Assembly: GCA_903825445.1 (NCBI GenBank)
Contig: CAIKAS010000364.1
Span: 26,298-90,297, forward strand
Source of the DNA: an uncultured Acidobacteriia bacterium
GTDB lineage: Bacteria; Acidobacteriota; Terriglobia; Bryobacterales; Bryobacteraceae
Direction of reading: 5' to 3'
Length of the DNA stretch: 64,000 nucleotides
Shown here piece after piece: positions 3,755 to 56,559 of the stretch (position 1 is its first letter; every line of letters starts with the position of its first letter). The notes under the pieces were generated by a model. The model worked only from the letters and a program-made list of their open reading frames with translations, did not search any database and had not been told where the DNA came from. The position numbers were made by a program, and so were the translations under genes.

Positions 3755-3781
3755 GCGTTATTCTACAGCGTAGTCCGCAAA

Positions 3782-8847: not shown

Positions 8848-8854
8848 AATCACA

Positions 8855-9499: not shown

Positions 9500-9510
9500 C
9501 GCAGCGGGGC

Positions 9511-9570: not shown

Positions 9571-9580
9571 AGAGGAAACC

Positions 9581-37432: not shown

Positions 37433-37437
37433 GGACG

Positions 37438-38829: not shown

Positions 38830-38866
38830 AGCAAAAACGCACCCGTTTGAAAGGAACCAAAACCGC

Positions 38867-40168: not shown

Positions 40169-40183
40169 ACAGATCGGAGGAGA

Positions 40184-40219
40184 TTCCCCGCCAGTCGTAT
40201 CAACACGGCTGGCGGGGAA
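40184..40219 (+). other. intercistronic 11-bp perfect hairpin
   Basis: TTCCCCGCCAG (40184..40194), a 14-nt loop, then CTGGCGGGGAA (40209..40219). No U-tract follows. It lies between the tlpA-like and dsbD-alpha-like genes. Confidence 0.5.
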
Positions 40220-40235
40220 CAAAACTGTAAACCCT

Positions 40236-40709
40236 ATGAAAATGACCGCAGGAAAATGCCCGCTCGTTCTCGTCGTCGCCGCACTTGCCTTTGCGCAAGG
40301 CAGCCCGATTGTTTTGACGTTCGCCCCACCTGCCAGCCTCACCGCGAAGCCTGGCTCAACCGCGAATACTACTCTCTCCGTCACCGTCGCCCCCGGCTAT
40401 CACGCCAACAGCAATAAGCCTGTGGACCCATACCTAATTCCGCTCCAGCTAAGTTGGAATCCGGGCCCGCTGACAGCAGCCGGTGTCATTTTCCCGAAGC
40501 CCGAAACACAGAAACTCGGATTCTCCGCGAAGCCAGTATCCGTATTCACCGGCAATTTCAATATTGAAACGAAATTCAAAGTAGCCAGCAACGCAACTCC
40601 GGGCACAACGACTGTGACCGGAAAGCTGCACTACCAGGCCTGCGACGACCGTTCCTGCCTTCCCCCAAGAACGATTGAAGTGACGCTGCCCGTAACGATT
40701 GCGAAGTAG
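40236..40709 (+). CDS. DsbD N-terminal (alpha) domain-like protein (DsbC-corrector family)
   Basis: 157-aa ORF with a signal peptide. GKLHYQACDDRSCLPPRTIEV carries the Cys pair and CLPP context typical of the DsbD-alpha/ScsB N-terminal domain. Confidence 0.65.
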   Translation: MKMTAGKCPLVLVVAALAFAQGSPIVLTFAPPASLTAKPGSTANTTLSVTVAPGYHANSNKPVDPYLIPLQLSWNPGPLTAAGVIFPKPETQKLGFSAKPVSVFTGNFNIETKFKVASNATPGTTTVTGKLHYQACDDRSCLPPRTIEVTLPVTIAK

Positions 40710-40723
40710 AGGAGATCTCTGAA

Positions 40724-41686: not shown

Positions 41687-41711
41687 CCACGCTAACTAAG
41701 GAGCAAAGAAC

Positions 41712-42128
41712 ATGAGACACATTCTGGGATTACTTACCGTCATGGCCATCGGGCTGGCCACATTTGTCGCACCCGTCAGCGCCCACCATTCGTTTGCCGC
41801 CGAGTTTGATGGCAGCAAGGCCATCCGCCTCGTTGGGAAACTGACGAAGGTCGACTGGTCGAACCCCCACACCTACTTCTTTCTGGATATCCAGGACGAT
41901 AAAGGCAAGGTCACGAATTGGGCCTGTGAAGGCGGCGGCCCGGGCGCGCTGTCTCGACGCGGCCTCAACAAGGGTGATCTAAAACTCGGCGACACCATCG
42001 TCGTTGACGGTTATCGCGCCAAAGATGGATCCAACCTGATCGACGCGCGGCGCGTCACGCTGCCGGACGGTCGCAGCATTTACGGTGGCACCCCGGGTGA
42101 CGGTGGCCCAGGCGACAACGGCCAGTAG
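41712..42128 (+). CDS. small periplasmic protein, DUF6152-like; predicted mature N-terminus HHSF
   Basis: 138-aa ORF with RBS AAGGAG upstream. The signal peptide ends ...APVSA followed by HHSFAAEFD. The motif KVDWSNPHTYFFLD is present. The DUF6152 assignment is from memory. Confidence 0.55.
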   Translation: MRHILGLLTVMAIGLATFVAPVSAHHSFAAEFDGSKAIRLVGKLTKVDWSNPHTYFFLDIQDDKGKVTNWACEGGGPGALSRRGLNKGDLKLGDTIVVDGYRAKDGSNLIDARRVTLPDGRSIYGGTPGDGGPGDNGQ

Positions 42129-42626
42129 ATGTCCGCTTCCCTGCTGCAATTCTGTCAATGGCTGAACGATACCGGCCCTGCCACCGCGCTGCGTGAATCG
42201 AAGTATATGTTTCCGATCGTCGAATCGGTTCACACGCTCGCCATCACGCTGGTGGTGGGGACCGTGGCCATATTGGATCTTCGCCTTCTTGGTCTGATCC
42301 TCAAAAAAGAACCCGTGTCCAAAGTGGCCAACCAGATTTTACCGGTCACATGGAAAGGCTTCGTTGTGATGGCAATCAGCGGCCTGGCGCTTTTCGCGGC
42401 GGAAGCTGCGAAGTCGTATCACAATCCCGCGTTTCGGTTCAAATTAATCCTGCTCGCGCTGGTCGGTCTCAATCCTCTGATCTTTCATTTCACGATTTAC
42501 AAAACGGTCGACCAGTGGGGCGGAGCACCCCGCGCTCCCGGTCGCGCTCGCCTCGCTGCCGTTCTGTCCCTAAGTCTCTGGAGTGCGATTGTCATCGCCG
42601 GCCGCGCTATCGCCTATTTCAACTAA
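42129..42626 (+). CDS. polytopic membrane protein, paralogue 1 of 4 (DUF6644-like)
   Basis: 165-aa ORF starting directly after the previous stop. Shared motifs are ESVHTLA, DLRLLG, YHNPAFRFK, AAVLSLSLW and GRAIAYF. Confidence 0.6.
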   Translation: MSASLLQFCQWLNDTGPATALRESKYMFPIVESVHTLAITLVVGTVAILDLRLLGLILKKEPVSKVANQILPVTWKGFVVMAISGLALFAAEAAKSYHNPAFRFKLILLALVGLNPLIFHFTIYKTVDQWGGAPRAPGRARLAAVLSLSLWSAIVIAGRAIAYFN

Positions 42627-42633
42627 AACTGAT

Positions 42634-43110
42634 ATGTCCATTCTCTCTCTGTTTCAGTGGTATGACCACACGGGCCTCGCCGACTGGATGCATCGCTCCG
42701 CATGGGGATTCGCCGTAGTCGAAATGTTCCACCTGATCGCGCTCGCATTGTTCGGCGGCGCGGTTCTGATGCTGAACCTCCGGCTGCTTGGCATCTTCCT
42801 TCCTGGACGGCCCGCCGGTCAAATCGCGCGCGATCTTGCCCCGTTGATCTTCGGCACGCTCGTCGTCCTGGCGATCACAGGCGTCCTGATGATTTCGGAA
42901 GAAGCGATGAAGTGTTATCACAACACCGCATTCCGCTGGAAGATGCTGCTATTTCTACCTGCGTTGCTTCTCAGCGTGGGAATGCATCGCAGGCTCGCAA
43001 CTTCGCCGGGGTCATTCGCCTCTGAGAGTACCGCCAGATTCGCCGCGGTGCTCTCTCTGACGCTTTGGTTCAGCGTGGGCGTGGCAGGCAGAGCAGTCGG
43101 CTATCTCTAA
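42634..43110 (+). CDS. polytopic membrane protein, paralogue 2 of 4 (DUF6644-like)
   Basis: ORF 42583..43110, start moved to ATG 42634 by alignment with the paralogues. Motifs: EMFHLIA, NLRLLG, YHNTAFRWK, AAVLSLTLW, GRAVGYL. Confidence 0.6.
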   Translation: MSILSLFQWYDHTGLADWMHRSAWGFAVVEMFHLIALALFGGAVLMLNLRLLGIFLPGRPAGQIARDLAPLIFGTLVVLAITGVLMISEEAMKCYHNTAFRWKMLLFLPALLLSVGMHRRLATSPGSFASESTARFAAVLSLTLWFSVGVAGRAVGYL

Positions 43111-43130
43111 ACGCTAACCCACAAGCAACC

Positions 43131-43574
43131 ATGCTCATCTACGATCTCGCCGCCAATCCGCTCAACAGTAACGAGTGGTCCTTCCCTCTCACGGAATGCT
43201 TCCACGTCGCGTCCATGGCGCTTTGCATCGGCACCATTGCGGTCGTCGACCTGCGACTCCTCGGTGCAGGCATCACGAACCGAACCGCAGGGCAACTCGT
43301 TCGCCTCACCGACCCCTGGAGCATCGCCGGATTCAGCATCGTCATCACCTCCGGCCTGCTGATCTTCTCGTCCGATCCGCTCAAGTATCTCCACAGCGCA
43401 CCGTTCCAGCTCAAGATGGGACTTCTCCTGCTCGGCATTCTCTACAACTACACGCTCCATCGCAAAGCCGCGCGGTCCGATCCGCCGCCTGGCATTCGAT
43501 TCCTCGCCGCCGCCTTCTCCCTCGCACTGTGGACGACGCTCGTGTTCTCGTCAATTTTTGTGGCCTTTTGGTAA
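43131..43574 (+). CDS. polytopic membrane protein, paralogue 3 of 4 (DUF6644-like)
   Basis: ORF 43065..43574, start moved to ATG 43131. Motifs: ECFHVAS, DLRLLG, YLHSAPFQLK, AAAFSLALW. Confidence 0.6.
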   Translation: MLIYDLAANPLNSNEWSFPLTECFHVASMALCIGTIAVVDLRLLGAGITNRTAGQLVRLTDPWSIAGFSIVITSGLLIFSSDPLKYLHSAPFQLKMGLLLLGILYNYTLHRKAARSDPPPGIRFLAAAFSLALWTTLVFSSIFVAFW

Positions 43575-43589
43575 AGGAATCCAACAATC

Positions 43590-44141
43590 ATGTCTATCGC
43601 GCAGATTTTCCATTGGACGCAGAACACCGCCTGGGCCACAGCTCTCCGCGAGTCGGACGTGGTCTACCCCGTCGTTCTCTCGCTTCATCTGTCCGCCATC
43701 GCGCTTTTCGGCGGCACCATCCTGCTCACCAATCTGCGTTTGCTCGGCCTCGCGCTTCGTCAAATTCCTGTCGCTGAGGTCGTCAAACAACTCCGTCCGT
43801 ATAAGTGGGCTGGCTTGGTCCTGATCCTCACGTGCGGCGTGCTGCTGGCCTCCGCCAAGGCGGACACCTATTACCCCAATCCGTATTTCCGAATCAAAAT
43901 CCTGCTGATCTCACTCGTGGGTGTCCACGCACTCATCTTCCGGCGAGGCGTTTACAACAAGGATGCGGGCGTCGCGCCTCCCAAAGCCAAACTTGCCGCC
44001 TGCCTGTCTCTGGCTCTGTGGCTGGGCATCCTGTCGATGGGCCGCTGGATCGCCTATTATGAAAAACCGAAGTCTGTACGGGCGTCTCCGAGCGCCTCAA
44101 ATTCTTCCACTGCGCTGATCGCGGCGGAGATTGCCCGATAA
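43590..44141 (+). CDS. polytopic membrane protein, paralogue 4 of 4 (DUF6644-like) with C-terminal tail
   Basis: 183-aa ORF. Motifs: LSLHLSA, NLRLLG, YYPNPYFRIK, AACLSLALW, GRWIAYY. It carries an extra ~25-aa Ser/Ala-rich tail. Confidence 0.6.
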   Translation: MSIAQIFHWTQNTAWATALRESDVVYPVVLSLHLSAIALFGGTILLTNLRLLGLALRQIPVAEVVKQLRPYKWAGLVLILTCGVLLASAKADTYYPNPYFRIKILLISLVGVHALIFRRGVYNKDAGVAPPKAKLAACLSLALWLGILSMGRWIAYYEKPKSVRASPSASNSSTALIAAEIAR

Positions 44142-44165
44142 GTGACAGCGGCCTGTAAAGCCTCG

Positions 44166-44786
44166 CTAACCTTCGTCAGGTGCTTCGCCTCGCCGCGGAA
44201 TTCCCTTCCCCGCAGCCTCGGCTCCCGGTGGTTCACGGAACGGTTCCACCTCGATGCGCCCGTAGCGCACTTCGAGCACGGTCAGATAGTCTGTACCGCC
44301 CGGCGCCTGGAGAACCACGTTGTCGCCCTCTGCCGACTTCATCAACGCCCGCCCAAGCGGCGACACCCAACTGACGTGGTTGCGGTTGAGATCCACCTCG
44401 TCGGCGCCCACAATGCTCACCACCCGCTCCGCTCCCGCGGCATTGGCATAGCGCACAGTTGCTCCGAAGAATGCCCTCGCCGCCGCCGGTCCGCGTCTCG
44501 GAGTTTCCGGGTCAACCACCTCCGCGGCCTCGATTCGTTTCGTGAGAAACCGAATCCGCCCATCGATCTGCCGCAGCCGCCGCTTGCCGTACTGATAGTC
44601 GGCGTTTTCACTGCGATCGCCATTGCTCGCCGCCCACGACACCACCGCCGTCACCGCCGGGCGTTCCCTCGTGAGTAAGAACCGGTGCTCGTCTTTGAGG
44701 CGCTCCAGCCCGCCTGGCGTGATGTAATTCTTGCCAGGTGTCGCGGGCTCGTCCCGCTTCGGTTCTCTCGTAAACCCTTTCCGCAT
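44166..44786 (-). CDS. greB: transcription elongation factor GreB
   Basis: 206-aa ORF. ITPGGLERLKDE...WAASNGDRSENADYQYGKRRLRQIDGRIRFL closely matches the GreB coiled-coil signature (WAASxGDRSENADYQY). The C-terminal FKBP-like domain has SWVSPLGRALM. Confidence 0.85.
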   Translation of the reverse strand: MRKGFTREPKRDEPATPGKNYITPGGLERLKDEHRFLLTRERPAVTAVVSWAASNGDRSENADYQYGKRRLRQIDGRIRFLTKRIEAAEVVDPETPRRGPAAARAFFGATVRYANAAGAERVVSIVGADEVDLNRNHVSWVSPLGRALMKSAEGDNVVLQAPGGTDYLTVLEVRYGRIEVEPFREPPGAEAAGKGIPRRGEAPDEG

Positions 44787-44955
44787 GACTAGTCCTTACA
44801 GCGCGAATCCCGTGACTGCCACAGAGCTCTTACTGATCCTATCCATCATCTCGAACAAGTGCCGGCGAAAGTCATAACGAGTGCGGAATCCTCGCGCAAG
44901 TCGCCAGGAAGCGGTCAACCAGGTTGTGCTGCACCAGTCGATCGCCACTTCGCCG

Positions 44956-45957
44956 TCAGGCCTTGGCTATGGGCAGTTCAACGTCGACGCAGCCGAGTGT
45001 AAAAGCGAACGGAAATGGTCCAGGATCGGTTGTGCGGTACGACCCGTCAAAGAAGACCAGCGCGCGGCCACCCATATTCTCGTCGAATTGAAAGGTGGGC
45101 TTCCACGGCCCGGAGTGCCATCCTTTATCCTCAGCGGTCATAATCTGCACGGGCTGACTCCAGGCGGACAAATGACTCCAGGGCTTGCTGCCTCGGCACC
45201 ACCATAAGCCTGTCTCGGGGGGAGGAGTGTCGGCCCCGACCCAGACCCGCGCGAATATCGCATCAAATCCAGCACCGCGCGGACGAACGCAGAAGTCGAA
45301 CATCCTTAGTTCTGGCCCCGCAAAGACGTGTCGCTGACTCCAATCGCCAATGCCGCTTTCGCTTTCCGCATAGCAATGGACAAGATAGTTCTCCTGATTG
45401 GAACCAGCGACATACCACATTTTCCATTTGCCATCGTGATAGATAAGGTTCGGTTCGTAAACGCTCCCGTTTTCCCACTCCTCATTTGCCCTGAAGGCAG
45501 GTTGTTGGCAATCTTCCCAAGCGCTCCCGTTCCATTCCAGAAAGCCGATTGAGTAAGGGCCCCAGAGATTTTCGACGGAGCCGGCATAGTAAATGCGTTC
45601 CACCCACGCACCTTTGGCTGGGTCCCATCCCTTCACATAAGATGGGCAGTGCCGTCCGCCGCCGCTATCCCATCCCCGGCTCAGTTCAGATCCTGCCAGC
45701 GGGGATGGCGCGCCCGTTTCATCGCGATCCACTTTCCAGCCGGTAGCTGTCAGGGGCGCTCCCGTGGGCAGTGAGGCGCTATAGAGATTCGTTGCTCCGT
45801 GCCCGCCCACTTGACCTGCAAGGCACATCCACCAGTGGTCACCGCGCCACACTACGCTTGCATCAACAAGCTCAGAGCCACCCGTTCCGGTAGCGGGATC
45901 GCGAGGATCGAAAACCTTGACTTCAGTTCCTGTTTGGGGCCTCGTGGACTGGAACAC
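44956..45957 (-). CDS. hypothetical protein, beta-propeller glycoside-hydrolase-like (GH43/GH130-type resemblance)
   Basis: 333-aa ORF with a Trp/Gly-rich repeated blade-like pattern (WWMCLAG, ERIYYAGS, GKWKMWYVAGS, ALVFFDGS). The function is uncertain. Confidence 0.35.
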   Translation of the reverse strand: MFQSTRPQTGTEVKVFDPRDPATGTGGSELVDASVVWRGDHWWMCLAGQVGGHGATNLYSASLPTGAPLTATGWKVDRDETGAPSPLAGSELSRGWDSGGGRHCPSYVKGWDPAKGAWVERIYYAGSVENLWGPYSIGFLEWNGSAWEDCQQPAFRANEEWENGSVYEPNLIYHDGKWKMWYVAGSNQENYLVHCYAESESGIGDWSQRHVFAGPELRMFDFCVRPRGAGFDAIFARVWVGADTPPPETGLWWCRGSKPWSHLSAWSQPVQIMTAEDKGWHSGPWKPTFQFDENMGGRALVFFDGSYRTTDPGPFPFAFTLGCVDVELPIAKA

Positions 45958-46113
45958 GATTTCTATTATCGTAGAGAATCCTGTGGAAAGCGGGATAGAC
46001 CGCGCATACTACGGTCAGCCATGAGAAGGCAACGTGGTTTGCGCTTCATGATCACTGTGAGTTGAGCCGGCAAACAACCGCTGCCGCGCCTTCAGCGAAG
46101 TCCTCACTAACCC

Positions 46114-46156
46114 AAAAGAGGCGAACACCGGCCTCCGCACCGATGTCCGCCTCTTT
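46114..46156 (-). terminator. candidate terminator of the minus-strand tlpA-like gene
   Basis: On the minus strand: AAAGAGGCG, a 24-nt loop, CGCCTCTTT, then TGGG. The plus-strand arms are at 46115..46123 and 46148..46156. It lies 23 nt downstream of stop 46179. Confidence 0.4.
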
Positions 46157-46178
46157 CCCCCCGCAGAATGCGTCCGTC

Positions 46179-47411
46179 TTACTTCCTCGCAGTCTGTGAA
46201 TTCTCCGCCAGCAGTTTCTCCACTCGCTCCACGAATTCCTTCTTCTCCTTCTCGTAGAGAACTCCGCTCCCTGAACTTGGGAAGCCCGCATGCACGCCCT
46301 TCACCAGCCCGTCGCGACCCACAAAGAACGTCGTCGGCCACGCATTCCAGTTCTGCGCCTGCGTCAGTTTTTCCTTCGCGCTGCCCGTTTCGCCGGCTAA
46401 CAGCACCGTGTACTTAATGCCGTTCTGCTTGATAAACGCCCGCAGGCGCGTCGGGTTCGCCACCTGCTCCGCCTCTTCAAACGACAGCGCGATAATCTCC
46501 AGTCCCTTGCTGTGGTACTTGTTGTAAACCTCTGCCAGGAACGGCGCTTCGTCATGGCAATTCGGGCACCAGCTGCCCGTGATGTTAATCAGCACCACCT
46601 TGCCCTGAAATCGGGCATCGGTGTTCGATACGGTCTTCCCGTCCAGATCCGGAAAACTGAATGGAAACGGCTGCGTCGCGTCCTTCACCGTCGTGAAGGA
46701 ATTAGCGTCAGTCGGCTCCGCCAGGCCCTTCGCCTTGACCTCTTCCGGCCGGATCGCGACGACCGTTCCGCCCCCGCGCCCGCTCCCCTGATCTACCGAC
46801 AACGTACCGTTTTCCTGCGGCGTGATCGTCCAAATTGCCGGACGTGACCCATCGAAGTGGCTGACCACAAACTTGCCGTCCTGCCAGCCGCCCGTCAGTG
46901 CGCCAGTGTCGCCATCTACCCGAAGAATCGACGCCGTGACGTCGTTGCCTTTCTGTGTCACCACCAGATTCCACGCCTTCTCGCCCTTGCTGCTCTTAAC
47001 GTCTTCAATCACCCACACACCCGCCACATTCGGTGCCGGCGTCTTCGGAGCCGCCTGCGGGCGGTTGGGGACCGCGTGGATCGGTGAGGGCGCACCCGAC
47101 CTTCCACCCCGCGAAGTCGACCAATCGCCGTCCAGGGAGCCGTCTTTAAGGGTCAGCTTCAGAACCCCCAGATAACTATCGAAATTCAGAACCAGCGAGC
47201 CATTCTCATATGTGCCGCCGCTGGATATCAGCTTGCCGTCCCCGTTAAAGAACCAACCCTTTACGTCGGAGCCCGATCCCGAAAAGCCAATCTTGAACGG
47301 AATCTCCGTTGTGCCTTGCTTTAAAGTCGCGTCCCAGAGTCCGTCAATGGTCTGTGCCTGCATTCCGGCTACAACAGACAAGAACAGGATGCTAATTCGT
47401 CTGATCTTCAT
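46179..47411 (-). CDS. TlpA/ResA-like thiol-disulfide oxidoreductase, second paralogue
   Basis: 410-aa ORF with a signal peptide. It has the WCPNC active site (VVLINITGSWCPNCHDEAPFL) and GLEIIALSFEEAEQ. It is collinear over its full length with 38867..40168, including the unknown N-terminal domain (GxWDAxLxQ..TxIPF, LRVDGDxG, SHFDGSRP). Confidence 0.8.
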   Translation of the reverse strand: MKIRRISILFLSVVAGMQAQTIDGLWDATLKQGTTEIPFKIGFSGSGSDVKGWFFNGDGKLISSGGTYENGSLVLNFDSYLGVLKLTLKDGSLDGDWSTSRGGRSGAPSPIHAVPNRPQAAPKTPAPNVAGVWVIEDVKSSKGEKAWNLVVTQKGNDVTASILRVDGDTGALTGGWQDGKFVVSHFDGSRPAIWTITPQENGTLSVDQGSGRGGGTVVAIRPEEVKAKGLAEPTDANSFTTVKDATQPFPFSFPDLDGKTVSNTDARFQGKVVLINITGSWCPNCHDEAPFLAEVYNKYHSKGLEIIALSFEEAEQVANPTRLRAFIKQNGIKYTVLLAGETGSAKEKLTQAQNWNAWPTTFFVGRDGLVKGVHAGFPSSGSGVLYEKEKKEFVERVEKLLAENSQTARK

Positions 47412-47560
47412 AAATACTCCTTACTCGATAGACTATAGGGTGTTTTGTCTCCTGTCAATAGGCATCGCGGATTATTGTGCTAGACATGCCCTTGGTAATA
47501 ATATTATTTATCAATCAGTTACATAACTCTTACTACATACTGCCGATACTACATCGAAAT

Positions 47561-47569
47561 TGGTATGAT
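47561..47569 (+). promoter_or_regulatory. extended -10-like element (TGgTATGAT) in the divergent encapsulin/tlpA control region
   Basis: TG at 47561..47562 and TATGAT at 47564..47569. It lies ~200 nt upstream of the encapsulin ATG and there is no good -35. This is a pattern match only. Confidence 0.25.
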
Positions 47570-47769
47570 TGCAGCCGAAGTGGGTGTGCCGTGCCTCTCT
47601 GCAGCCAGTTTCGCCGCCAGCACCATGCTCGCTCAGGTCCGGTCACAAATAAATCCGCCCTACATCTACCCATTGTCGATGGACTTTAGTATGATGTGGA
47701 GTATGCGCTGGCGGCTCCCAGGCGTGAGTTGCTGGCATATTTACCATTAACTATTGGAGATTCAATTAG

Positions 47770-48693
47770 ATGGCCATCGAACCAGAACGGCAAACGGCAC
47801 TCGGCGACGTAGCGGCCCGCCAACTTGCCAACGCGACCAAGACCGCTCCCCAAATGTCGCGCATCACCCCGAGGTGGCTCACGCACTTGCTGCAGTGGAC
47901 CCCGGTGGAAGCGGGTATTTACCGGCTAAACCGGGTGAAAGATGAGGCTAAGGTCACCGTCGATTGCTCCGACCGCGACGAACGCGACCTGCCTCAGACC
48001 TACGTTGACTATGAAGAGAATGCACGCGAGTACATGTTGAGCGCCGTCAACACGGTGGTAGACGTTCACACCCGGGTTTCGGATCTCTACAGCGTCCCGT
48101 ACAACCAGATCACCGAGCAATTGCGCCTCACCATCGAGATTGTCAAGGAACGCCAGGAAAGCGAACTGATCAACAATCACGAGTACGGTTTGCTGCATAG
48201 CGTTGCTCCGAAACAGAGGATCAAGACGCATTCAGGTGTTCCAACACCCGACGATCTGGACGATCTGATCGCAAAAGTCTGGAAAGAGCCCGGCTTCTTC
48301 CTCGCCCATCCGCTGGCCATCGCCGCATTCGGGCGTGAATGCACCCGCCGTGGCGTACCACCGCCTACAGTTTCTCTCTTCGGCTCGCAGTTCCTCACAT
48401 GGCGCGGCATCCCGCTGATTCCTTCTGACAAGATCGGCGTCGAGAAACATAAGACAAGCATCCTCCTGGTCCGTACCGGCGAGCGCAGACAGGGCGTCGT
48501 CGGACTCTACCAACCCAATCTTCCGGGTCAGCAAAGCCCCGGTCTCTCGGTCCGTTTCATGGGCATCAACCGCAAGGCGATCGCGTCGTACCTGGTCTCC
48601 CTCTATTGCTCGCTCGCGGTTCTGACCGAAGACGCTCTCGGCGTCCTCGAAGGCGTGGAAACGGATAAATATCATGAGTACAAACGCGTTTGA
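47770..48693 (+). CDS. family 2A encapsulin nanocompartment shell protein
   Basis: 307-aa ORF with GGAG 11 nt upstream. The motifs are collinear with SrpI/Rv1762c-type shell proteins as I remember them: ARQLANATKT, ITPRWLTHLLQWTPVEAGIYRLNRV, LPQTYVDYEE, HTRVSDLYS, QLRLTIEIVKERQESELIN, PTPDDLDDLIAKVWKEPGFFLAHPLAIAAFGRECTRRGVPPP, TWRGIPLIPSDK, GLSVRFMGIN. There is no cNMP-binding insertion. Confidence 0.85.
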   Translation: MAIEPERQTALGDVAARQLANATKTAPQMSRITPRWLTHLLQWTPVEAGIYRLNRVKDEAKVTVDCSDRDERDLPQTYVDYEENAREYMLSAVNTVVDVHTRVSDLYSVPYNQITEQLRLTIEIVKERQESELINNHEYGLLHSVAPKQRIKTHSGVPTPDDLDDLIAKVWKEPGFFLAHPLAIAAFGRECTRRGVPPPTVSLFGSQFLTWRGIPLIPSDKIGVEKHKTSILLVRTGERRQGVVGLYQPNLPGQQSPGLSVRFMGINRKAIASYLVSLYCSLAVLTEDALGVLEGVETDKYHEYKRV

Positions 48694-50317
48694 TCCCGGC
48701 CTTCCGGATGAACTGCCTGAAGGTTGGCCCGAAATAGAAACACTCGCACGCCTCGCAAATGAGTTCTTCTCTGCGAAGCCCGGAGAAACTGTGCCGGATG
48801 CTCACACGCCCGCGTCGCCGGAACCCGCGAATTTCGATTTGAACGGCGACGTTCCACTCGGCCGCTCAGCGCCGTCGCCTGTCGCGCTTCCCGGCGCGTC
48901 AGAATTGCAGGCGCTCATCGACGCGATTCCGTTCTCTCCCTTCGCGCCACCAGCGGCGGCGCCAGGTACCCCGGCGTCAACTGGCCCCAGTTTCTACTTT
49001 ATGGAGCAAGCTGGTCCAGGCCCGGTGACTCCGCCGCCCGGAGCCGCCACGCCACAAGCCTCTTTGCACGGCTTCAGCGGACCCTTCGACGTAGCCTCAA
49101 TCCGGCGCGACTTTCCCATCCTCGAAGAGCGCGTCAACGGCCGTCAGCTCGTTTGGCTCGATAACGCGGCCACCACCCAGAAACCGCGTCTCGTCATCGA
49201 TCGCCTGAAGTATTTCTACGAGCACGAAAACTCCAACATTCATCGAGCCGCGCATGAACTGGCGGCACGGGCTACCGACGCCTACGAATCGGCGCGCGAC
49301 AAAGTACGCGGCTTCCTGAACGCCGGTTCTTCGAAAGAAATCGTCTTCGTCCGCGGCGCCACCGAAGCCATTAACCTGGTCGCCCAAAGCTGGGGGCGTC
49401 AGCACGTCGGTAAAGATGACGAGATTATTGTCTCCACGCTGGAACATCACGCCAACATCGTGCCCTGGCAGCAATTGGCAACGGAGAAGGGCGCTAAACT
49501 GCGCGTCATCCCGGTCGACGATAGCGGCCAGCTCCTTCTGGACGAGTACGGCAAGCTTCTTAACTCAAAAACGAAGCTCGTAGCCTTCACCCAGGTTTCG
49601 AACGCCCTCGGCACCATCACGCCAGCGAAGCAGATCATCGAAGCGGCGCATTCCGCCGGCGCGAAGGTTCTCCTCGATGGCGCGCAATCCGTATCCCATA
49701 TGGCCGTCAACGTTCAGGATCTGAATCCGGATTGGTTCGTCTTCTCCGGCCACAAGGTCTTTGGGCCTACCGGCATCGGCGTGCTCTACGGCAAGGAAGC
49801 GCTGCTCAGCGAAACGCAGCCGTGGCAGGGCGGCGGCAACATGATTCAGGACGTCACCTTCGAGCGCACCATCTATCAACCGGCGCCAAATAAGTTCGAA
49901 GCCGGCACCGGCAATATCGCGGATGCCGTCGGCCTTGGTGCCGCCATCGACTACGTTCAGTCCATCGGGCTGGACCGTATTTCGGAATACGAGCACCAGC
50001 TCCTGCTCTACGCCACCCGCTTCCTGCAGGAGATTCCCGGCCTGCGGCTGATCGGCACGGCGAAAGAGAAAGCGGGCGTCCTTTCCTTCGTTGTGGATGG
50101 CTACCGAACCGAGGATATCGGTTCTGCCCTCAATCGCGAAGGCATCGCCGTCCGCTCCGGACACCACTGCGCCCAGCCCATTCTGCGGCGCTTCGGAGTG
50201 GAAAGCAGCGTCCGCCCGTCGCTGGCGCTCTACAACACCTGCGCCGATATCGACGCCCTGATCTCAGCTCTGCTGCGAATCACAAGTCAACGAGCTTTTG
50301 CCACTCAGCGTACCTAA
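48674..50317 (+). CDS. cysteine desulfurase (SufS/CsdA-like, class V aminotransferase) with N-terminal encapsulin cargo-loading domain
   Basis: 547-aa ORF overlapping the shell gene by 20 nt. The catalytic core begins near IRRDFPILEERVNGRQLVWLDNAATTQKP. It has the PLP lysine in FSGHKVFGPTGIGVLYG and the active-site Cys in RSGHHCAQP. Aa 1-140 are Pro/Ala-rich and contain LARLANEFFS. Confidence 0.9.
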   Translation: MSTNAFDPGLPDELPEGWPEIETLARLANEFFSAKPGETVPDAHTPASPEPANFDLNGDVPLGRSAPSPVALPGASELQALIDAIPFSPFAPPAAAPGTPASTGPSFYFMEQAGPGPVTPPPGAATPQASLHGFSGPFDVASIRRDFPILEERVNGRQLVWLDNAATTQKPRLVIDRLKYFYEHENSNIHRAAHELAARATDAYESARDKVRGFLNAGSSKEIVFVRGATEAINLVAQSWGRQHVGKDDEIIVSTLEHHANIVPWQQLATEKGAKLRVIPVDDSGQLLLDEYGKLLNSKTKLVAFTQVSNALGTITPAKQIIEAAHSAGAKVLLDGAQSVSHMAVNVQDLNPDWFVFSGHKVFGPTGIGVLYGKEALLSETQPWQGGGNMIQDVTFERTIYQPAPNKFEAGTGNIADAVGLGAAIDYVQSIGLDRISEYEHQLLLYATRFLQEIPGLRLIGTAKEKAGVLSFVVDGYRTEDIGSALNREGIAVRSGHHCAQPILRRFGVESSVRPSLALYNTCADIDALISALLRITSQRAFATQRT

Positions 50318-50903
50318 GCCGCGCGAGCTCAAATCGATCCGTCGTGCGGCAGTAGACCGAAGGTGAGCCAAGCCGTCCGATCGGCGCGAAATCTTTGATG
50401 TGCATGCGCGGGCCCACCAGTTGGTCCGCCACGTGAAACATAACCACTTCGCCGATGATCAGCGTGTTCGCGCCGAGCGCCTGCGAACTGAAAAGCCTGC
50501 ATTCCAGGCTGACCTGCGCCTCGGCAACTCTTGGTGTCCTTACCTGGACGGAAGGCGCGGTGTGCAGGTGAGCGGCTTCCAGTTCGCTTTGATCCGGCGG
50601 AAAATCTGCTGCGGAAATATTCATAGCCGCAAGCAATTCCTCCGTCACAAAGTTCACCACGAACTCGCCGCTGGTTTGAATATTGCGTGCCGTGTCCTTA
50701 GGTGCCCCACTGTCACGGTTTCCAATGCCAACCACCACATACGGCGGAGCGCTGCCGACTGCATTGAAGAAGCTAAACGGAGCCAGGTTGACAACACCGC
50801 TGTCACCTGCGCTGGTGATCCACGCAATCGGCCGGGGAACCACTAAATCTGTCAGCAACTTGTAGTTTTCCGCGTTCGCGTGAAGAGAGGGATCGATTTG
50901 CAT
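50280..50903 (-). CDS. flavin reductase family protein (FMN-binding split barrel)
   Basis: 207-aa ORF with VPRPIAWITSAGDSGVVNLAPFSFFNAV, typical of the flavin reductase-like domain. Its 3' end overlaps the desulfurase 3' end by 38 nt (convergent). Confidence 0.75.
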   Translation of the reverse strand: MQIDPSLHANAENYKLLTDLVVPRPIAWITSAGDSGVVNLAPFSFFNAVGSAPPYVVVGIGNRDSGAPKDTARNIQTSGEFVVNFVTEELLAAMNISAADFPPDQSELEAAHLHTAPSVQVRTPRVAEAQVSLECRLFSSQALGANTLIIGEVVMFHVADQLVGPRMHIKDFAPIGRLGSPSVYCRTTDRFELARLRYAEWQKLVDL

Positions 50904-51154
50904 ACTGGGCGCTTGCCGCTCATTGACTACCGCTCAACTACCGCATTTTTACCGTGCGCTACTGGCTGCATGGAGGCAGCGGTTCGCAGGAGCCGAAACA
51001 ACACTAGCAGCCCGTGGTAATAACCGCTGCTTGACCGTCTCCGCTCTGCAACGCGTTGAATTTACTGAGCCGCGCACGCCAGTAAGCGGTGCTCTGAGAC
51101 TTCTGCCAAGGGCTGCTGGCCCAATTATAGAAGGCGCCCCGGCAGGAGTCCCAG

Positions 51155-52405
51155 CTACCTTCCGTGCACTTCCATTGGGACCGTAAACGTGAATCGTGTC
51201 CCCTGCCCAGGCTCGCTTTCGAGAGAAATCGACCCGCCGTGTTGCTCCACCAGGGCTTTCGTGATCGCCAGACCAAGGCCGGTTCCCTCACGAGTCCCGT
51301 TCGTCGTGGTGCCTATCTGGTGAAACCTGTCGAAGACTGCGTCGTGCGCCTCTTTGGCTATACCAATACCCGTATCTGAAACGGAAAATGTCAAATACTC
51401 GGGATGTGTCGTTGCTTCGATTCTCACTTTGCCCCCTTCGGGAGTAAATTTCAACGCGTTGCTGAGCAGATTCAGAAAAATCTGCCTCAGGTGCAAACGG
51501 TCTGCTGTCAAAACCGGGAGGGCGTCGAAGTGTTTTTCAACCCGAATCGACTTGGCTTCAGCACTCAGCCGCATCGACGATACAACCTCTTCGATCACAA
51601 TGGCGGGCTCGAAGCTCTCAGGCCGAATCTCCAGCCGTCCCGATTCGACTTTGCTGAAGTCGAGTAATTTGTTGATCAGTCCCAATAAGTGCTGGGCGTC
51701 GGTATGGATGTAGCGAACAAACCGTTCCTGTTCTTCGTTCAGCGGTCCCTGAGCCTCATTGCGAAGCAGTTCTGAGAAACCAAGAATGGTTTGCAGGGGC
51801 GAACGCATCTCGTGGCTGATGTGTGAAAGAAACTCGTCTTTGCGTTGGTTGGCTTCGTTGAGCTCAATATTCTTCTGCAGCAAGTCCCTCGCACGGAGGA
51901 AAAGTTCGGCCTCCATCCGCACGGCATGGCCGCGAAGTTCCTGTGCGATTTCTTCTTGCATCTCGCCTTGCCGCCGGAGGCGGACAAATGCCGTCACGTC
52001 CTCCACGCGGTGGATGATGTAACGGACATTCTTCCGTGAATCGAAGACCGGAGAGTTAATCGGACTCCAGTATCGCTCCTCAAACCCTCCACCCTCCGCG
52101 GCTGGTCGGCGAATGTCGTACTTCTGCACTGGCATCGTATCAACAGTGCCGTTTTGGAGTACTCGTCCCAGGGACGCCCGCAGATTATGTACGCCGGTAG
52201 CCGTCGCATCCCCCGGATCGTCGGGAAAGACGTCAAAAATACCGCGTCCCAGAATTTCCTCGCGCTTGGTCATCGTGGCTCGGAGGTACGCCTCGTTCAC
52301 GGCGACGATCGCGAGGTCCGGTTTCAGAACCAGATAGAGCCCAGGCGCAGATTCAAATAGGGCCTGATAATCGAGGTCGGGGTGCCTGCTGCCGGAAGAT
52401 CGCAT
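51155..52405 (-). CDS. PAS-domain sensor histidine kinase (cytoplasmic, orphan)
   Basis: 416-aa ORF with an N-terminal PAS domain. It has the H-box [17 protein letters not shown]-box [13 protein letters not shown] and G-boxes SDTGIGI and GTGLGLAI. There is no TM segment and no adjacent response regulator. Confidence 0.85.
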
Positions 52406-53073
52406 CGTATCTACACGTCAATCTCGTCCTGGAATAAGTGCAATTTCTGACTGCTTTACCCCTCATTCAATGAGATTTATCGGACAATATATCGTCATTG
52501 AACAGAAAATGAAGTTACTTTGATTTTACCGCAGGTCGGACTCCTCGTGGCTACCACAGTCGCTGGTTACGAGTCTATCTGGTCCTCTTTCGAACAGTTG
52601 CAGGCCCGCCGTTGCCCATGGCCAGTCACAGGGACCCGTAATACTCGTATCCGGCACATAAGAAATCACTTCCCATCGTTCCCCCTTCTCTGCAAGGCTG
52701 ATTTCCCGCCTCTCTGCCATATAGTCAGATTGGACTATGCTTTCACAAGTCAATCTCGCGAACTTTTGCCAACAGGACTTAGTGCGCGTGCCGCCGACCC
52801 GCGTTACAGAAACGCCGGGACAACTAAAAAAACAAGATGTTCCAGCAAATCCGGCCTATCTATCAGAAAACAATAGCAACCCGCCGCACGGGAAACCCAT
52901 TTATAAGCCATTCTCAAGCCATTTCCGGTGTGTTTTAGCCCATTTTCCGGCCGGGAAAAGCCAACTCAACCCATCCAGGGACACCAAGACCCATTCCCGG
53001 ATAGACTCGCGGAAGACTTTGGTCCGGCCCCTGACATTTCAGCGGAAGCCTGCCTTCTGCCGCTGTCTTATGT

Positions 53074-53102
53074 TTGACATTCGTGTCCAGTCTCGCTATT
53101 GT
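53074..53102 (+). promoter_or_regulatory. sigma70-type promoter candidate for the ACIII-like operon (TTGACA-17-TATTGT)
   Basis: TTGACA at 53074..53079, a 17-bp spacer, then TATTGT at 53097..53102. It lies ~130 nt upstream of the actA ATG at 53232. Confidence 0.45.
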
Positions 53103-53231
53103 CATGAGTTGCCCTCTGTCCCGGGTTTTGGTCCGAAACGGGGTTCAGCGTGGGCTTCGCCGTACTCAATTTTCGTGTCCGATCCAGGTTTGTACAGCCG
53201 CTTCTCCGGTCCCCATTTGCGGCCTGCCGCC

Positions 53232-53717
53232 ATGATTGCGTCAGTGCTGCGCGGGCTTGCGCTTGCCGCCCTCTGCGCGGTCGGAATAACTGCGCTCCAG
53301 GCCCAGCAGCAGCCCATCGCCTATTCCCATAAAAAGCACATTGCATTAGGTTTAGCGTGCCTCGATTGCCACAGCATGGCGGATATTGGTCCAGCCGCTA
53401 CCATCCCTTCGGTGAGGAAGTGCATGCTGTGCCACTCAACCCTTGCGACCGACAAGCCTGAAGTCAAGAAGATAGCCGACTACGCCGCCAAAGGCCGCGA
53501 AATCCCCTGGCAACGGGTCTATGGATTTGAAACTCAGGCGCTGGTGAAGTTCAATCACGCGCCGCATATCCGGGCCAAAGTGGAGTGCGCCACCTGCCAC
53601 GGTGACATGACTCAGGCCGATACCGCGCAAAAACTGGTGAACCACAACATGGGCACCTGCATCACCTGCCACCGGCAGAAGGGGGCCTCGCAGGATTGCG
53701 CAACATGTCATTACTAG
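53232..53717 (+). CDS. actA: pentahaem c-type cytochrome (ACIII ActA-like)
   Basis: ORF 52737..53717. I moved the start to ATG 53232, giving signal/anchor MIASVLRGLALAALCAVGITALQA. It has five CxxCH motifs (CLDCH, CMLCH, CATCH, CITCH, CATCH) in 161 aa. Confidence 0.8.
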   Translation: MIASVLRGLALAALCAVGITALQAQQQPIAYSHKKHIALGLACLDCHSMADIGPAATIPSVRKCMLCHSTLATDKPEVKKIADYAAKGREIPWQRVYGFETQALVKFNHAPHIRAKVECATCHGDMTQADTAQKLVNHNMGTCITCHRQKGASQDCATCHY

Positions 53718-53731
53718 GCCCTAAACCTAAT

Positions 53732-55867
53732 ATGGAGCGCCGTGACTTCTTCAAGATCCTGGGAGCCGGCACCGCAGGCGCGGCTGCGACCAGTTGCGGC
53801 AGCAAGACCGATGCCCTGATTCCCCTTCTGGTCCCCGAACACGACATTCCGATCGGTGAAGAGCGCTGGCACCCCGCTGTCTGCACGGAATGCGCGGCCG
53901 GTTGTGGAACTCTGGTGCGCGTGATGGGCGCCGAACGGGTCATAGAAATAAAGGGTGAGCAGGTTCGCCAGCGCGTTGCCGCCGTGAAGAAGATCGAAGG
54001 CAACCCGCTTGATCCGATCAGCGGTGGCCGTCTTTGTGCCCGCGGTCAGGCAGTAGTCCAGGCGCTCTATCATCCCGACCGTCTGCGTGGCGCGATGAAG
54101 CGCACGGGTGATCGTGGCAAAGCATCATTCGCGGCTGTTTCCTGGGATGATGCCGTCGCCGGTGTCGCGCAGAAGATTCACGCAGCCGACCCCTCGCGCA
54201 TCGTGTTCCTGACCGGACCGAATGCGGGCAGCCGCTCCGCCGCAATTCAGGGATTCCTGAAGGCCATCAAGGCCCCGTCCGCCACTGTGTGCTCGCTGGC
54301 GGATTTCGCGATCGAGCGTAAGGCAGCTGAAGAAGCGCTGGGCTGGAAAGGCCTGCCGGTTTACGATGTCGCGAACGCCACACACGTCCTCGGCGTAGGC
54401 GCGGACTTTTTGGGCGGATGGGAATCACCGGTTTACTACGCGCGCCAGTTCGGACATTTCCGACAAGGCAGAGTGGGCATCCGCGGCACATTGTTCCAGG
54501 CGGAATCGCGCTTCTCCACAAGCGCGACGGCGGCTGATCGCTGGCTTCCCATCGCGCCTGGCTCGGAGCCTCAGTTCATCGCGGCAGTGGCCAGAATTCT
54601 GATCGACGCAAAGCTCGCCCCAAATGTAGCTGCCTTGCCGGCATCGGTGGCGCAGGCATTCCGTTCAGCCGATGTGGCTGCCCTGCTGAAGGCTTGCGGA
54701 CTCGAAGAGAAACGCACGCTGCCGATCATCCTCGAATTCGGCGCGTCGCGAGCGCCGCTGGTGTTAGCCGGCGCTTCGGCGGTTCACACGAATTCGCTGG
54801 ACGCCGTGATCGCATCGCATTATCTGAATCTGATGCTGGGCAACGTAGGCAAGCCCGGTGGCATGACGGCCCCGGCGACAAGCGCGATTGGCGTGGAAAC
54901 CAGCGAGTTGGCCAGCAGGCTCGCGAATGCCCAAGTCATTCTGATCGACGGCGCCAATCCGGCGTACCTGTTGCCGAAGTCATCCGGCATTCTGGATGCA
55001 CTGGGCCATGCGGATACCGTCGTCAGCTTCGCACCGCTGGTAGACGATTCCGCCGCCTACGCCGATTTCATTTTGCCGGATCATCATGCGCTCGAATCGA
55101 CCGTCGTGGTGGCGCCGGCGATGTCGGACCGTACCGCCATGGCGCTCGCCGAGCCCTTTGTCGAGCCGCTCTATGAAACGCAGGCGGTAGAGAAGACGCT
55201 GGGCGATATTGCAGGCAAGCTCAACGCCACCTACACGGCGATAACTCCCGCCGATCTGGTGAAACCGCTTTTGAAAGGCGACGCCACTTACGCCGAAACT
55301 GCCCGTGAAGGTGGCGTGTGGCTGGCACCCGATGCGAAACCGACGCCAGCGAAACCTGGCAAGGACGTAACATTGAGCGCGGCAACATTCGCCGGCGATG
55401 CCGCGCAGTTCCCGCTCTTCTTTCAGCCGTATCTTTCGCTGCAGTTCCACGATGGCAGCAGTTCACACCTGCCGTGGATGCAGGAACTTCCCGACCCCGC
55501 ATCGAGCGCCATTTGGGGGTTGCCCGTCGAGATCGATGGTAAAACCGCCCAGGGCCTGGGAATTGCGGAGGGCGATCTGGTCCGCATCGAATCGCCACAC
55601 GGCGCGATTCAGGCAGCGGCGTTTGTCCATCCGGCTGCGATCCCCGGCGTCATCAGCATGGGGATCGGTGGCGGCCACACTCACTTTGGCCGCTATGGTT
55701 CGGATCGCGGTGCGAATCCGCTTTCGATACTGGCCCCGTCAACCGAGAAGACAACGGGCGCCATTGCCACCGGGGCAACCCGCGTAAAGCTCAGCCGCGT
55801 GAGCGAAGAAGGCAGACTCATTCAGTTCTCCACGCAGAAGAGTGAGAACAGGGGCGCGCACAGGTAA
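53732..55867 (+). CDS. actB1: molybdopterin-oxidoreductase-family subunit (ACIII ActB1-like), Tat signal
   Basis: ORF 53696..55867. Possible starts are 53696, 53705 and 53732; I chose 53732 for the compact Tat signal MERRDFFKILGAGTAGAAATSCG. It has the MopB N-terminal Cys motif CTECAAGCG...GGRLCARGQ. Total length is ~710 aa. Confidence 0.75.
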   Translation: MERRDFFKILGAGTAGAAATSCGSKTDALIPLLVPEHDIPIGEERWHPAVCTECAAGCGTLVRVMGAERVIEIKGEQVRQRVAAVKKIEGNPLDPISGGRLCARGQAVVQALYHPDRLRGAMKRTGDRGKASFAAVSWDDAVAGVAQKIHAADPSRIVFLTGPNAGSRSAAIQGFLKAIKAPSATVCSLADFAIERKAAEEALGWKGLPVYDVANATHVLGVGADFLGGWESPVYYARQFGHFRQGRVGIRGTLFQAESRFSTSATAADRWLPIAPGSEPQFIAAVARILIDAKLAPNVAALPASVAQAFRSADVAALLKACGLEEKRTLPIILEFGASRAPLVLAGASAVHTNSLDAVIASHYLNLMLGNVGKPGGMTAPATSAIGVETSELASRLANAQVILIDGANPAYLLPKSSGILDALGHADTVVSFAPLVDDSAAYADFILPDHHALESTVVVAPAMSDRTAMALAEPFVEPLYETQAVEKTLGDIAGKLNATYTAITPADLVKPLLKGDATYAETAREGGVWLAPDAKPTPAKPGKDVTLSAATFAGDAAQFPLFFQPYLSLQFHDGSSSHLPWMQELPDPASSAIWGLPVEIDGKTAQGLGIAEGDLVRIESPHGAIQAAAFVHPAAIPGVISMGIGGGHTHFGRYGSDRGANPLSILAPSTEKTTGAIATGATRVKLSRVSEEGRLIQFSTQKSENRGAHR

Positions 55868-55872
55868 ACGCT

Positions 55873-56559
55873 ATGGCACACCGCTGGGGAATGGCTATCG
55901 ATCTCGACCGTTGCACAGGCTGCGAAGCCTGTGTTGCGGCCTGCCATGCCGAAAACAATATTCCGATTTCCACGCCAGAGCAAGCCGCATCCGGCCGCAC
56001 CACGCACTGGATCCGCGTCGACCGTTATTACGAAGGCGCCTTCCCCGACGTGAAGGTGAAGTACATGCCGGTGCTGTGCCAGCAGTGCGATGAAGCGCCC
56101 TGCGAGCCGGTTTGCCCGACGTACGCGACGTATCACAATCCCGAAGGCCTCAACGTTCAGGTTTACAACCGCTGCGTCGGGACTTTCTACTGCGCAAACA
56201 ACTGCCCGTACACGGTTCGCTATTTCAACTGGTTCGATCCCGTCTGGCCGGAGCCAATGCAACTGCAGCACAACCCCGACGTGGCGGTCCGCATGGCCGG
56301 CGTGATGGAGAAGTGCACGTTCTGCATTCAGCGGATCAAGCGCGGCAAGGATGAAGCGGAAACCGCGGGACAACCCGTGGCCGATGGCGATATTCAGCCA
56401 GCATGTGTACAAGGCTGCCCGTCGGAAGCAATGGTGTTCGGCGATCTTAACGATCCCGAGAGCAAGGTTTCGCGCATGGCTGAAAGCAGCCGCGCGACTC
56501 GTTTGCTCGAAGAACTCGGGACGAAACCGAAAGTGTTCTATCTGGAGCGTGGCCGCTGA
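55873..56559 (+). CDS. actB2: 4Fe-4S ferredoxin-type subunit (ACIII ActB2 / PsrB/NrfC-like)
   Basis: 228-aa ORF with WGMAIDLDRCTGCEACVAACHAEN, CQQCDEAPCEPVCP, CVGTFYCANNCPY and CTFC...ACVQGCP. These are the four Cys clusters typical of this family. Confidence 0.85.
   Translation: MAHRWGMAIDLDRCTGCEACVAACHAENNIPISTPEQAASGRTTHWIRVDRYYEGAFPDVKVKYMPVLCQQCDEAPCEPVCPTYATYHNPEGLNVQVYNRCVGTFYCANNCPYTVRYFNWFDPVWPEPMQLQHNPDVAVRMAGVMEKCTFCIQRIKRGKDEAETAGQPVADGDIQPACVQGCPSEAMVFGDLNDPESKVSRMAESSRATRLLEELGTKPKVFYLERGR

Follow-up and report, generated by a model that had tools for sequence, protein, structure and literature searches.

A two-gene desulfurase-encapsulin operon of a Bryobacterales acidobacterium and its likely role as a sulfur store and cysteine buffer

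The window, i.e., the whole stretch of 64,000 nucleotides analyzed here, comes from a Bryobacterales acidobacterium and contains a putative capsid-like shell gene that runs into a gene for a cysteine desulfurase. The question raised by this locus is whether both genes make up a genuine encapsulin with its cargo and, if so, what such a compartment would do for the cell. We consider it very probable that this is a two-gene desulfurase-encapsulin operon, with a sulfur store or cysteine buffer as its likely role. Its neighbors are genes for a redoxin, a GreA-like factor, a flavin reductase, a histidine kinase and respiratory complexes. The features of the locus are as follows:

47412..47769, no strand: divergent intergenic region of 358 nt, with the presumed promoter and the ribosome-binding site
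47770..48693, + strand: family 2A encapsulin shell of the SrpI / MMP-I type, 307 aa (NF041162, PF19307, PDB alignments)
48674..48693, + strand: 20-nt overlap of the shell 3' end and the cargo 5' start, in which YHEYKRV* and MSTNAF share the same DNA
48674..50317, + strand: encapsulin cargo cysteine desulfurase, 547 aa, ATG start, with an N-terminal loading domain and a SufS-type (class II) PLP domain (NF041166, TIGR01979, PF00266)
48674..49084, + strand: cargo-loading domain, cargo residues 1-137 (composition; motif alignment with the cargo N-termini of other loci)

The open reading frame at 47770..48693 is present on the + strand as the preliminary description had claimed, with an ATG start and 307 codons for amino acids, and all the shell peptide motifs listed there appear in the same order, at residues 16, 32, 74, 100, 117, 158 and 258. 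YHEYK, which had been given as the C-terminus, is found as well, but the protein actually ends in YHEYKRV. The proposed assignment to family 2A holds. A profile search with family 2 encapsulin models, one of the checks suggested beforehand, gave 535.4 bits to the curated NCBIfam equivalog NF041162 (encap_f2a, cutoff 380) over model positions 1-295 of 295, and the Pfam family PF19307 (SrpI-like) was matched with 357.9 bits (cutoff 22.8). The alignment with solved family 2A shells extends from end to end. Identity reaches 76.6% over 299 ungapped residues with the shell of A. baumannii 118362 (PDB 8T6R; PMC10836720) and 74.8% over 298 ungapped residues with SrpI of S. elongatus PCC 7942 (PDB 6X8M and 6X8T; PMC8049743). 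The shell of M. smegmatis (Mmp1; PDB 8WOL and 8WON; PMC11659603) is more distant, with E values in the PDB sequence comparison of ca. 1e-137 for the mycobacterial shells 8WOL and 9KSL versus 1e-153 for 8T6R and 6X8M. Judging by the profile E values (2.9e-161 for the shell against NF041162 and 2.2e-263 for the cargo against NF041166), the family matches of both proteins are far beyond chance.

The absence of the cNMP-binding insertion of family 2B, also noted beforehand, is confirmed by the length of the protein and by the lack of any such Pfam domain in it. Shells of family 2B (PDB 9BHU, 9BJE and 9BIX, with a terpene-cyclase cargo) share the HK97 core, and the window shell aligns with their C-terminal ca. 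240 residues, but they are ca. 470 aa long and carry the inserted domain, whereas the protein described here is much shorter, lacks it and comes with a desulfurase cargo. Of the family 2B model, only the shell part is matched (model positions 208-448 of 450), and on the window protein the 2B model and structures cover only the shell core, at query residues ca. 56-298. The ungapped, full-length identity of 75-77% to the cryo-EM structures 8T6R and 6X8M argues strongly for an HK97 fold. An AlphaFold2 model of the shell had a mean pLDDT of 37.8 because the underlying alignment was shallow, comprising 28 homologues that were all at least 84% identical.

The HK97 fold is common to encapsulins and tailed-phage capsids, and among the matches listed, some JGI records name homologues “Phage capsid-like protein.” The gene might thus be thought of as the remnant of a prophage, coding for a major capsid protein that came to lie beside a desulfurase by coincidence. 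However, no phage genes flank it, the protein passes the family 2A equivalog model, and the cargo bears dedicated loading motifs (see below). Moreover, in 77 of 81 loci, which belong to several phyla, the shell gene has the desulfurase gene as its immediate 3' neighbor. We regard the prophage origin as effectively refuted.

The second gene codes for the SufS-type desulfurase that had been announced, preceded by a non-catalytic extension of 137 aa where ca. 140 disordered residues had been estimated. It scored 876 bits against the cargo model NF041166 (f2_encap_cargo1, cutoff 800), 561 bits against the SufS subfamily model TIGR01979 and 482 bits against PF00266. The catalytic residues are intact: H258, K361 (within SGHK), C499 (within RSGHHCA) and R514, which correspond to H276, K379, C517 and R532 of the M. 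smegmatis enzyme. The catalytic domain is 66% identical to that of the encapsulin-associated desulfurase (Enc-CD) of this species (PDB 8KG1), the H, K, C and R being kept.

A desulfurase with an ordinary class II fold that is well over the TIGR01979 cutoff could also be a housekeeping SufS, working free in the cytoplasm in iron-sulfur cluster assembly and never encapsulated. This we find very hard to reconcile with the data and highly improbable, since none of sufBCD, sufE or sufU is adjacent and the protein falls below the equivalog cutoffs of SufS (495 versus 661 bits) and CsdA (404 versus 607 bits) while exceeding that of the encapsulin cargo. Among solved structures, the encapsulated enzyme of mycobacteria comes closest to it, and the 137-aa extension with LARLANEFFS is missing from housekeeping SufS proteins.

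This extension contains the motifs MSTN (residues 1-4), LARLANEFFS (24-33), DLNGDVPLG (55-63), LPGASELQALID (72-83) and PSFYFME (104-110). On composition alone (20% Pro; 53% P+G+S+A), residues 1-137 appear to be disordered, and no Pfam or PDB match was found over them. Two loading motifs have been published, LARLANEFFS and AASPYYFLDG (PMC8049743). The former is shared exactly with the CyD cargo of S. elongatus, and the latter is represented by the variant PSFYFME (within GPSFYFMEQ). Among the cargos of related loci, the pattern L-x-x-[LIMV]-[AV]-[NQS]-x-[FLYM]-[FY] recovers LARLANEFF in 63 of 78, and a stricter pattern in 4 of 78; most of the cargos outside the 63 show a recognizable variant by eye. 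The motifs SLPDPHF and SVAGSG, which a regular-expression search finds in ca. 40-50% of the other cargos, are absent from the window loading domain. In A. baumannii the N-terminus is likewise disordered and rich in Pro, Gly and Ser, but it is ca. 225 aa long, as in S. elongatus (225 aa), versus 137 aa here. The disordered region of M. smegmatis (155 aa) is similar in size to that of the window; the mycobacterial loading motifs have been defined on mycobacterial sequences only (PMC11659603). In length, the window loading domain lies near the lower limit for such domains.

The 20-nt overlap reported between both genes was found at 48674..48693, on the same strand. As the cargo start lies 20 nt ahead of the shell stop codon, shell and cargo are probably translationally coupled. 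Identical proteins are encoded on an ENA metagenome scaffold, where an independent gene call agrees on both genes, on their 20-nt overlap and on the convergent flavin-reductase gene. Among 78 related loci, the commonest overlaps are 14, 17 or 20 nt; seemingly longer ones are an artefact of an upstream ATG being picked. As in A. baumannii, the shell gene comes first and the desulfurase gene follows, but there they belong to an operon of four genes (rhodanese, serine O-acetyltransferase, shell and desulfurase) and here they stand by themselves: rhodanese and serine O-acetyltransferase are absent, and the flanking genes code for a redoxin (divergent) and a flavin reductase (convergent). Four operon types are listed in PMC10836720, and that of the window is thus the minimal one, consisting of shell and desulfurase. 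A tblastn search with acetyltransferase, CysK and sulfate-transporter sequences from related loci returned nothing in the 64-kb window except one generic ABC ATPase, and Pfam scans of the long open reading frames within 33983..57890 yielded no rhodanese. Other copies are connected with sulfur assimilation through accessory genes for serine acetyltransferase, rhodanese, CysK and a sulfate ABC transporter, of which this operon has none. SrpI of S. elongatus is plasmid-borne, amid sulfur-starvation genes, whereas the window context is chromosomal-looking and has no sulfur genes nearby.

The gene surroundings could be taken to mean that this is a genuine desulfurase encapsulin that serves mainly for cysteine detoxification or as a redox-stress device, tied to the neighboring thiol-redox genes, instead of being a starvation store. 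Serine acetyltransferase, CysK and sulfate transporter are absent from both the operon and the rest of the window, a flavin reductase lies convergently downstream, and a TlpA/AhpC-type redoxin of 410 aa is encoded on the opposite strand, divergently, 358 nt upstream of the shell gene. In 14 of the 81 loci, from two phyla, full-length homologues of this redoxin are encoded at most 6 kb away from the shell gene. Cysteine detoxification under redox stress has been raised as a possible role by Benisch et al. 2024 (PMC10836720), and shielding of the catalytic cysteine from oxidation was shown experimentally by Tang et al. 2024 (PMC11659603). However, the redoxin carries a predicted signal peptide and is thus expected outside the cytoplasm. 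It also has a paralogue with 45% identity at 38867..40168, 7.6 kb away, and the redoxins of Bryobacterales loci match either window paralogue equally well. Because the family is multi-copy, proximity to the operon may reflect chance or inherited gene order. For these reasons, the redoxin was downgraded as an added operon component; inherited gene order in a multi-copy family probably explains most of the proximity signal, and the link to the operon is weak. The flavin reductase was rejected as a partner, as it has no homologue in the 80 related loci and so accompanies the operon in no other of them. In the nearest relative (L001), sulfate-transporter-like genes flank the operon on both sides, which favors a link to sulfur supply. 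Altogether, a mainly detoxifying or redox function seems unlikely, although it is the most serious of the alternatives, and we prefer the sulfur store and cysteine buffer.

A further possibility would be that the Bryobacterales desulfurase encapsulins are a distinct functional variant, with two genes, a short loading domain devoid of SLPDPHF and SVAGSG, and lineage-specific partners, such as the recurrent 410-aa TlpA-like redoxin, replacing rhodanese and serine acetyltransferase in sulfur remobilization or redox coupling. In that case, the use made of the stored sulfur would differ from that in the characterized systems. We deem this improbable.

Upstream of the shell gene, a ribosome-binding site (GGAG) is located 8-11 nt 5' of the ATG. 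Consensus scans for promoters and terminators over 47300..50500 gave only chance-level matches, with no + strand sigma-70 match upstream of the shell gene. No riboswitch or any other RNA family turned up when the entire window was scanned against Rfam, and thus there is no evidence for upstream RNA-based sulfur sensing. A block of 26 nt (47670..47695) is common only to the window and its nearest relative, with 5 mismatches; it was rejected as a family-wide regulatory motif since it is absent from the other Bryobacterales and more distant loci. With no assignable promoter or regulator site, regulation of the operon by sulfur starvation would be pure extrapolation from the homologues.

Structures and biochemistry are available for three systems, those of A. 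baumannii, S. elongatus and M. smegmatis (PMC10836720, PMC8049743, PMC11659603), to which the demonstration of cargo loading and internal sulfur build-up is confined. By analogy with them, a working model can be proposed for the sulfur store and cysteine buffer preferred here. The 307-aa shell protein, with its predicted HK97 fold, would self-assemble into a T=1 icosahedron of 60 subunits, ca. 24 nm across. This architecture and the storage of sulfur, both established in A. baumannii, are expected for the window system too. The SufS-type, PLP-dependent desulfurase would be a dimer, and the short conserved motifs of its 137-aa disordered domain may dock separately on hydrophobic patches inside the shell. 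Such docking on the inner surface would enclose the enzyme during shell assembly. L-cysteine would pass in via the five-fold pores and be converted to L-alanine plus a persulfide on C499. As no sulfur-acceptor protein would be present within the shell, sulfur may accumulate there, either elemental or as polysulfide. In addition, the shell might guard the catalytic cysteine against over-oxidation. Under sulfur limitation or redox stress, the compartment would then likely provide the cell with a sulfur store of its own and with a buffer for cysteine.

Two statements of the preliminary description have to be corrected. The family was said to have been recognized only recently, with few examples studied, but surveys list 1,281-1,462 desulfurase operons of family 2A, spread over 11-13 phyla (PMC8346489, PMC10836720, PMC8049743); a scan of species-representative genomes gave at least 548 stretches encoding relatives, and E <= 1e-30 is reached by at least 8,000 sequence clusters (90% identity). 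Its physiological role was called unresolved, but storage of elemental sulfur by a desulfurase encapsulin (PMC10836720, in 2024) and protection of the catalytic cysteine (PMC11659603) have both been shown experimentally. The locus is an ordinary further example of a common and well-studied system. As high-resolution structures and biochemistry exist for close homologues, this copy makes no open question newly testable. It matters little past correct annotation, as one more acidobacterial (Bryobacterales) desulfurase encapsulin that shows the minimal two-gene form in these soil and peat bacteria and adds a data point on sulfur management in Acidobacteriota. Being naturally compact, with a loading domain of 137 aa and without accessory genes, the system may be of modest use in comparisons that ask which loading motifs can be spared. 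Both proteins are already correctly named by standard pipelines. The claim that no acidobacterial example had been characterized stands insofar as we found none with experiments in the literature, but NCBI already calls acidobacterial homologues family 2A shells: among the matches listed, Bryobacteraceae and Acidobacteriota MAG proteins with 87-89% identity carry exactly this name.

A family 2A encapsulin shell and its cysteine desulfurase cargo are encoded in the window, where the structure of the two genes, their family membership, the catalytic residues and the loading motifs were all directly observed. The pair and its surroundings are as follows, with a PAS histidine kinase as a further neighbor of the operon:

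38867..40168, + strand: second redoxin paralogue, 45% identical, 7.6 kb away
46179..47411, - strand: TlpA/AhpC-type redoxin, 410 aa, signal peptide, divergent from the shell gene
47770..48693, + strand: shell gene, 307 aa, ATG start
48674..50317, + strand: cargo gene, 547 aa, ATG start
50280..50903, - strand: flavin-reductase-like gene, convergent, downstream of the cargo gene
52737..57890, + strand: four-gene respiratory cluster (multihaem cytochrome c, molybdopterin-family, 4Fe-4S, NrfD-like)

The shell scored 535 bits (cutoff 380) with the equivalog NF041162 (“family 2A encapsulin nanocompartment shell protein”), covering the whole model, and passed the SrpI-like Pfam model PF19307 with 358 bits. 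In the PDB comparison, the solved family 2A shells of Acinetobacter baumannii (8T6R, 76.6% identity) and Synechococcus (SrpI, 6X8M, 74.8%) matched it end to end with zero gaps, and the mycobacterial MMP-I shells 8WOL, 9KSL and 8WON were more distant matches. For the family 2B shells 9BHU, 9BJE and 9BIX, the match was confined to a core of ca. 240 residues. No cNMP-binding insertion was found in the shell by Pfam, NCBIfam or PDB comparison, and the protein is therefore 2A and not 2B. The preliminary description had proposed this from seven peptide motifs, all of which occur in the order described, and from the lack of room for that insertion; the profile-HMM search with family 2 encapsulin models bears it out. 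The preliminary description did place YHEYK at the C terminus; the peptide is present, but the real end is ...YHEYKRV. An AlphaFold model built on a shallow alignment was unusable, with a pLDDT of 37.8; the predicted shell fold rests on homology.

Shell and cargo ORFs share 20 nt, as first described. Here the shell frame reads TAT CAT GAG TAC AAA CGC GTT TGA, and the cargo starts in the +2 frame (MSTN, ATG AGT ACA AAC). An ENA metagenome scaffold with identical proteins (L081) carries an independent gene call that matches in the gene pair, the overlap and the convergent downstream gene. The shared 20 nt suggest that the two genes are translationally coupled. The cargo gene and the flavin-reductase-like gene, which are convergent, overlap at their 3' ends by 38 nt (50280..50317; L081, 3013..3050), with no sign of a terminator-like hairpin between the two.

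The cargo had been taken for a SufS-type desulfurase, correctly so: it scored 876 bits with NF041166 (cutoff 800) and did not reach the cutoff of either housekeeping equivalog model, SufS or CsdA. Among solved proteins it is closest to 8KG1 (66% identity across 400 residues), a form of the M. smegmatis encapsulin-associated desulfurase truncated at the N terminus. The active-site residues of that enzyme, H276, K379, C517 and R532 (PMC11659603), are all conserved as H258, K361, C499 and R514. The identification of a shell with a desulfurase cargo is correct. The N-terminal extension, estimated at ca. 140 aa, spans residues 1 to 137 (20% proline, 53% P+G+S+A), with no Pfam or PDB coverage. This loading domain is at the short end for related loci (median ca. 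190 aa, range 69 to 427) and comparable to that of M. smegmatis, 155 aa, which was shown experimentally to load cargo (PMC11659603). Most SrpI-associated desulfurases carry the motifs LARLANEFFS and AASPYYFLDG (Nichols et al., PMC8049743); the first is exact at residues 24 to 33, and the counterpart of the second is GPSFYFMEQ (residues 103 to 111). Alignment of cargo N termini across related loci revealed a conserved M-S/N-T-N/S start, which supports the annotated start codon, together with LPD...L-x-x-LAN-x-F-F, D-L-x-G-D-V-P-L-G, L-P-G-E-x-E-L-x-A-L-L and Y/F-Y-F-L/M. The window cargo has all these elements; it lacks the SLPDPHF and SVAGSG blocks, which a regular-expression search detected in about 40 to 50% of the other cargos.

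The system is a member of a known, well-populated family. The preliminary description called the family recently recognized, with few members studied. Surveys list 1,281 family 2A desulfurase operons in 12 phyla (PMC8346489) and 1,462 in 11 phyla (PMC10836720), and Nichols et al. give 13 phyla (PMC8049743). Our protein search returned at least 8,000 candidates, every one with E ≤ 1e-30, and NCBI already labels proteins of 87 to 89% identity as family 2A shells, including “[Acidobacteriota bacterium]” entries. No paper on encapsulin and desulfurase together in Acidobacteria came up in the literature search, in line with the statement that no acidobacterial example had been characterized. The physiological role, described as unresolved, has since been addressed in part by 2024 work on sulfur storage (PMC10836720) and protection from oxidation (PMC11659603). 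At ca. 75% shell identity to solved structures, nothing suggests that the window system would behave differently from those systems, and the preliminary description greatly over-rated the interest of the locus.

Scanning one genome per species gave at least 548 stretches encoding a relative. The best 80 of these have 78 to 93% shell identity and belong to Acidobacteriota (Bryobacterales), Betaproteobacteria, Bacteroidota, Myxococcota and Fibrobacteria; the nearest among the matches listed are Bryobacterales and Bryobacteraceae MAGs (83 to 93%), which makes Bryobacterales the most probable source of the window. Of 81 loci, 77 have the desulfurase gene directly 3' of the shell gene, most commonly with an overlap of 14, 17 or 20 nt. 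Clustering of all neighboring ORFs for recurrent accessory genes recovered a directly adjacent hexapeptide-repeat protein in 31 loci, which we read, from its sequence and published operon types, as a probable serine O-acetyltransferase, a nearby CysK-type cysteine synthase in 8, and sulfate or methionine ABC-transporter-like components in about 10. None of these lies beside the window operon or, by tblastn with representatives, in the 64 kb, so the locus is of the minimal shell-plus-desulfurase type, which Benisch et al. (PMC10836720) list among four operon types.

Assembly, cargo loading, sulfur storage and regulation in the window system we infer from its relatives. By homology to three characterized systems, 60 subunits would form a T=1 shell ca. 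24 nm across, with five-fold pores wide enough for cysteine and alanine passage. Desulfurase dimers, up to 12 per shell, would be tethered inside by discontiguous contacts of short N-terminal motifs with hydrophobic patches on the inner surface. Sulfur would be stripped from L-cysteine onto C499 and, because the lumen would hold no acceptor protein, build up as polysulfide or crystalline elemental sulfur. The shell would raise desulfurase activity and guard the catalytic cysteine from over-oxidation.

The divergent redoxin has a WCPNC motif and an N-terminal domain of ca. 240 aa without a Pfam match. Of 81 loci, 14 (Acidobacteriota, Bacteroidota) have a full-length homologue no more than 6 kb from the shell gene, the redoxin-bearing relatives being L001, L002, L004, L006, L007, L008, L051, L059, L062, L070, L075, L078 and L080; in L059 and L062 the redoxin gene immediately follows the cargo gene, 108 to 167 nt away and on the same strand. 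As this is a multi-copy family, the association may reflect chance or inherited gene order, and it is weakened by the predicted export, the nearby paralogue and the probably inherited order within Bryobacterales.

L001, the closest relative (93% shell and 86% redoxin identity), has ca. 3.2 kb of extra genes between redoxin and shell (1531..4463), including an ORF clustering with sulfate-binding-protein-like proteins, and a convergent ABC-transporter-like cluster directly after the cargo gene (7225..10878). The window (47412..47769, 50280..50903) has neither, with the flavin-reductase gene instead; the operon flanks were therefore reshuffled recently. In the respiratory cluster, which resembles alternative complex III or a polysulfide/tetrathionate-reductase-like module, the 326-aa cytochrome ORF looks cytochrome-like in its C-terminal part only; the molybdopterin-family subunit has a Tat signal, the 4Fe-4S protein is of the dicluster type, and the NrfD-like protein is a membrane subunit. 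The region upstream of the shell gene yielded no match to an RNA family or a promoter consensus and no operator shared across the family. A 26-nt block, CCATTGTCGATGGACTTTAGTATGAT (47670..47695, + strand), lies 75 to 100 nt before the start codon. Within it are an imperfect palindrome (CCAT-N5-ATGG) and the -10-like hexamer TATGAT; the block is conserved at this position in L001 only, with 5 mismatches, and may be a promoter or operator. In L005 (JBEKVI010000141.1), a MAG labelled Burkholderiaceae with 86% shell identity, the shell and cargo N-terminal domain group with Bryobacterales rather than betaproteobacterial versions, which suggests a binning error or recent transfer.
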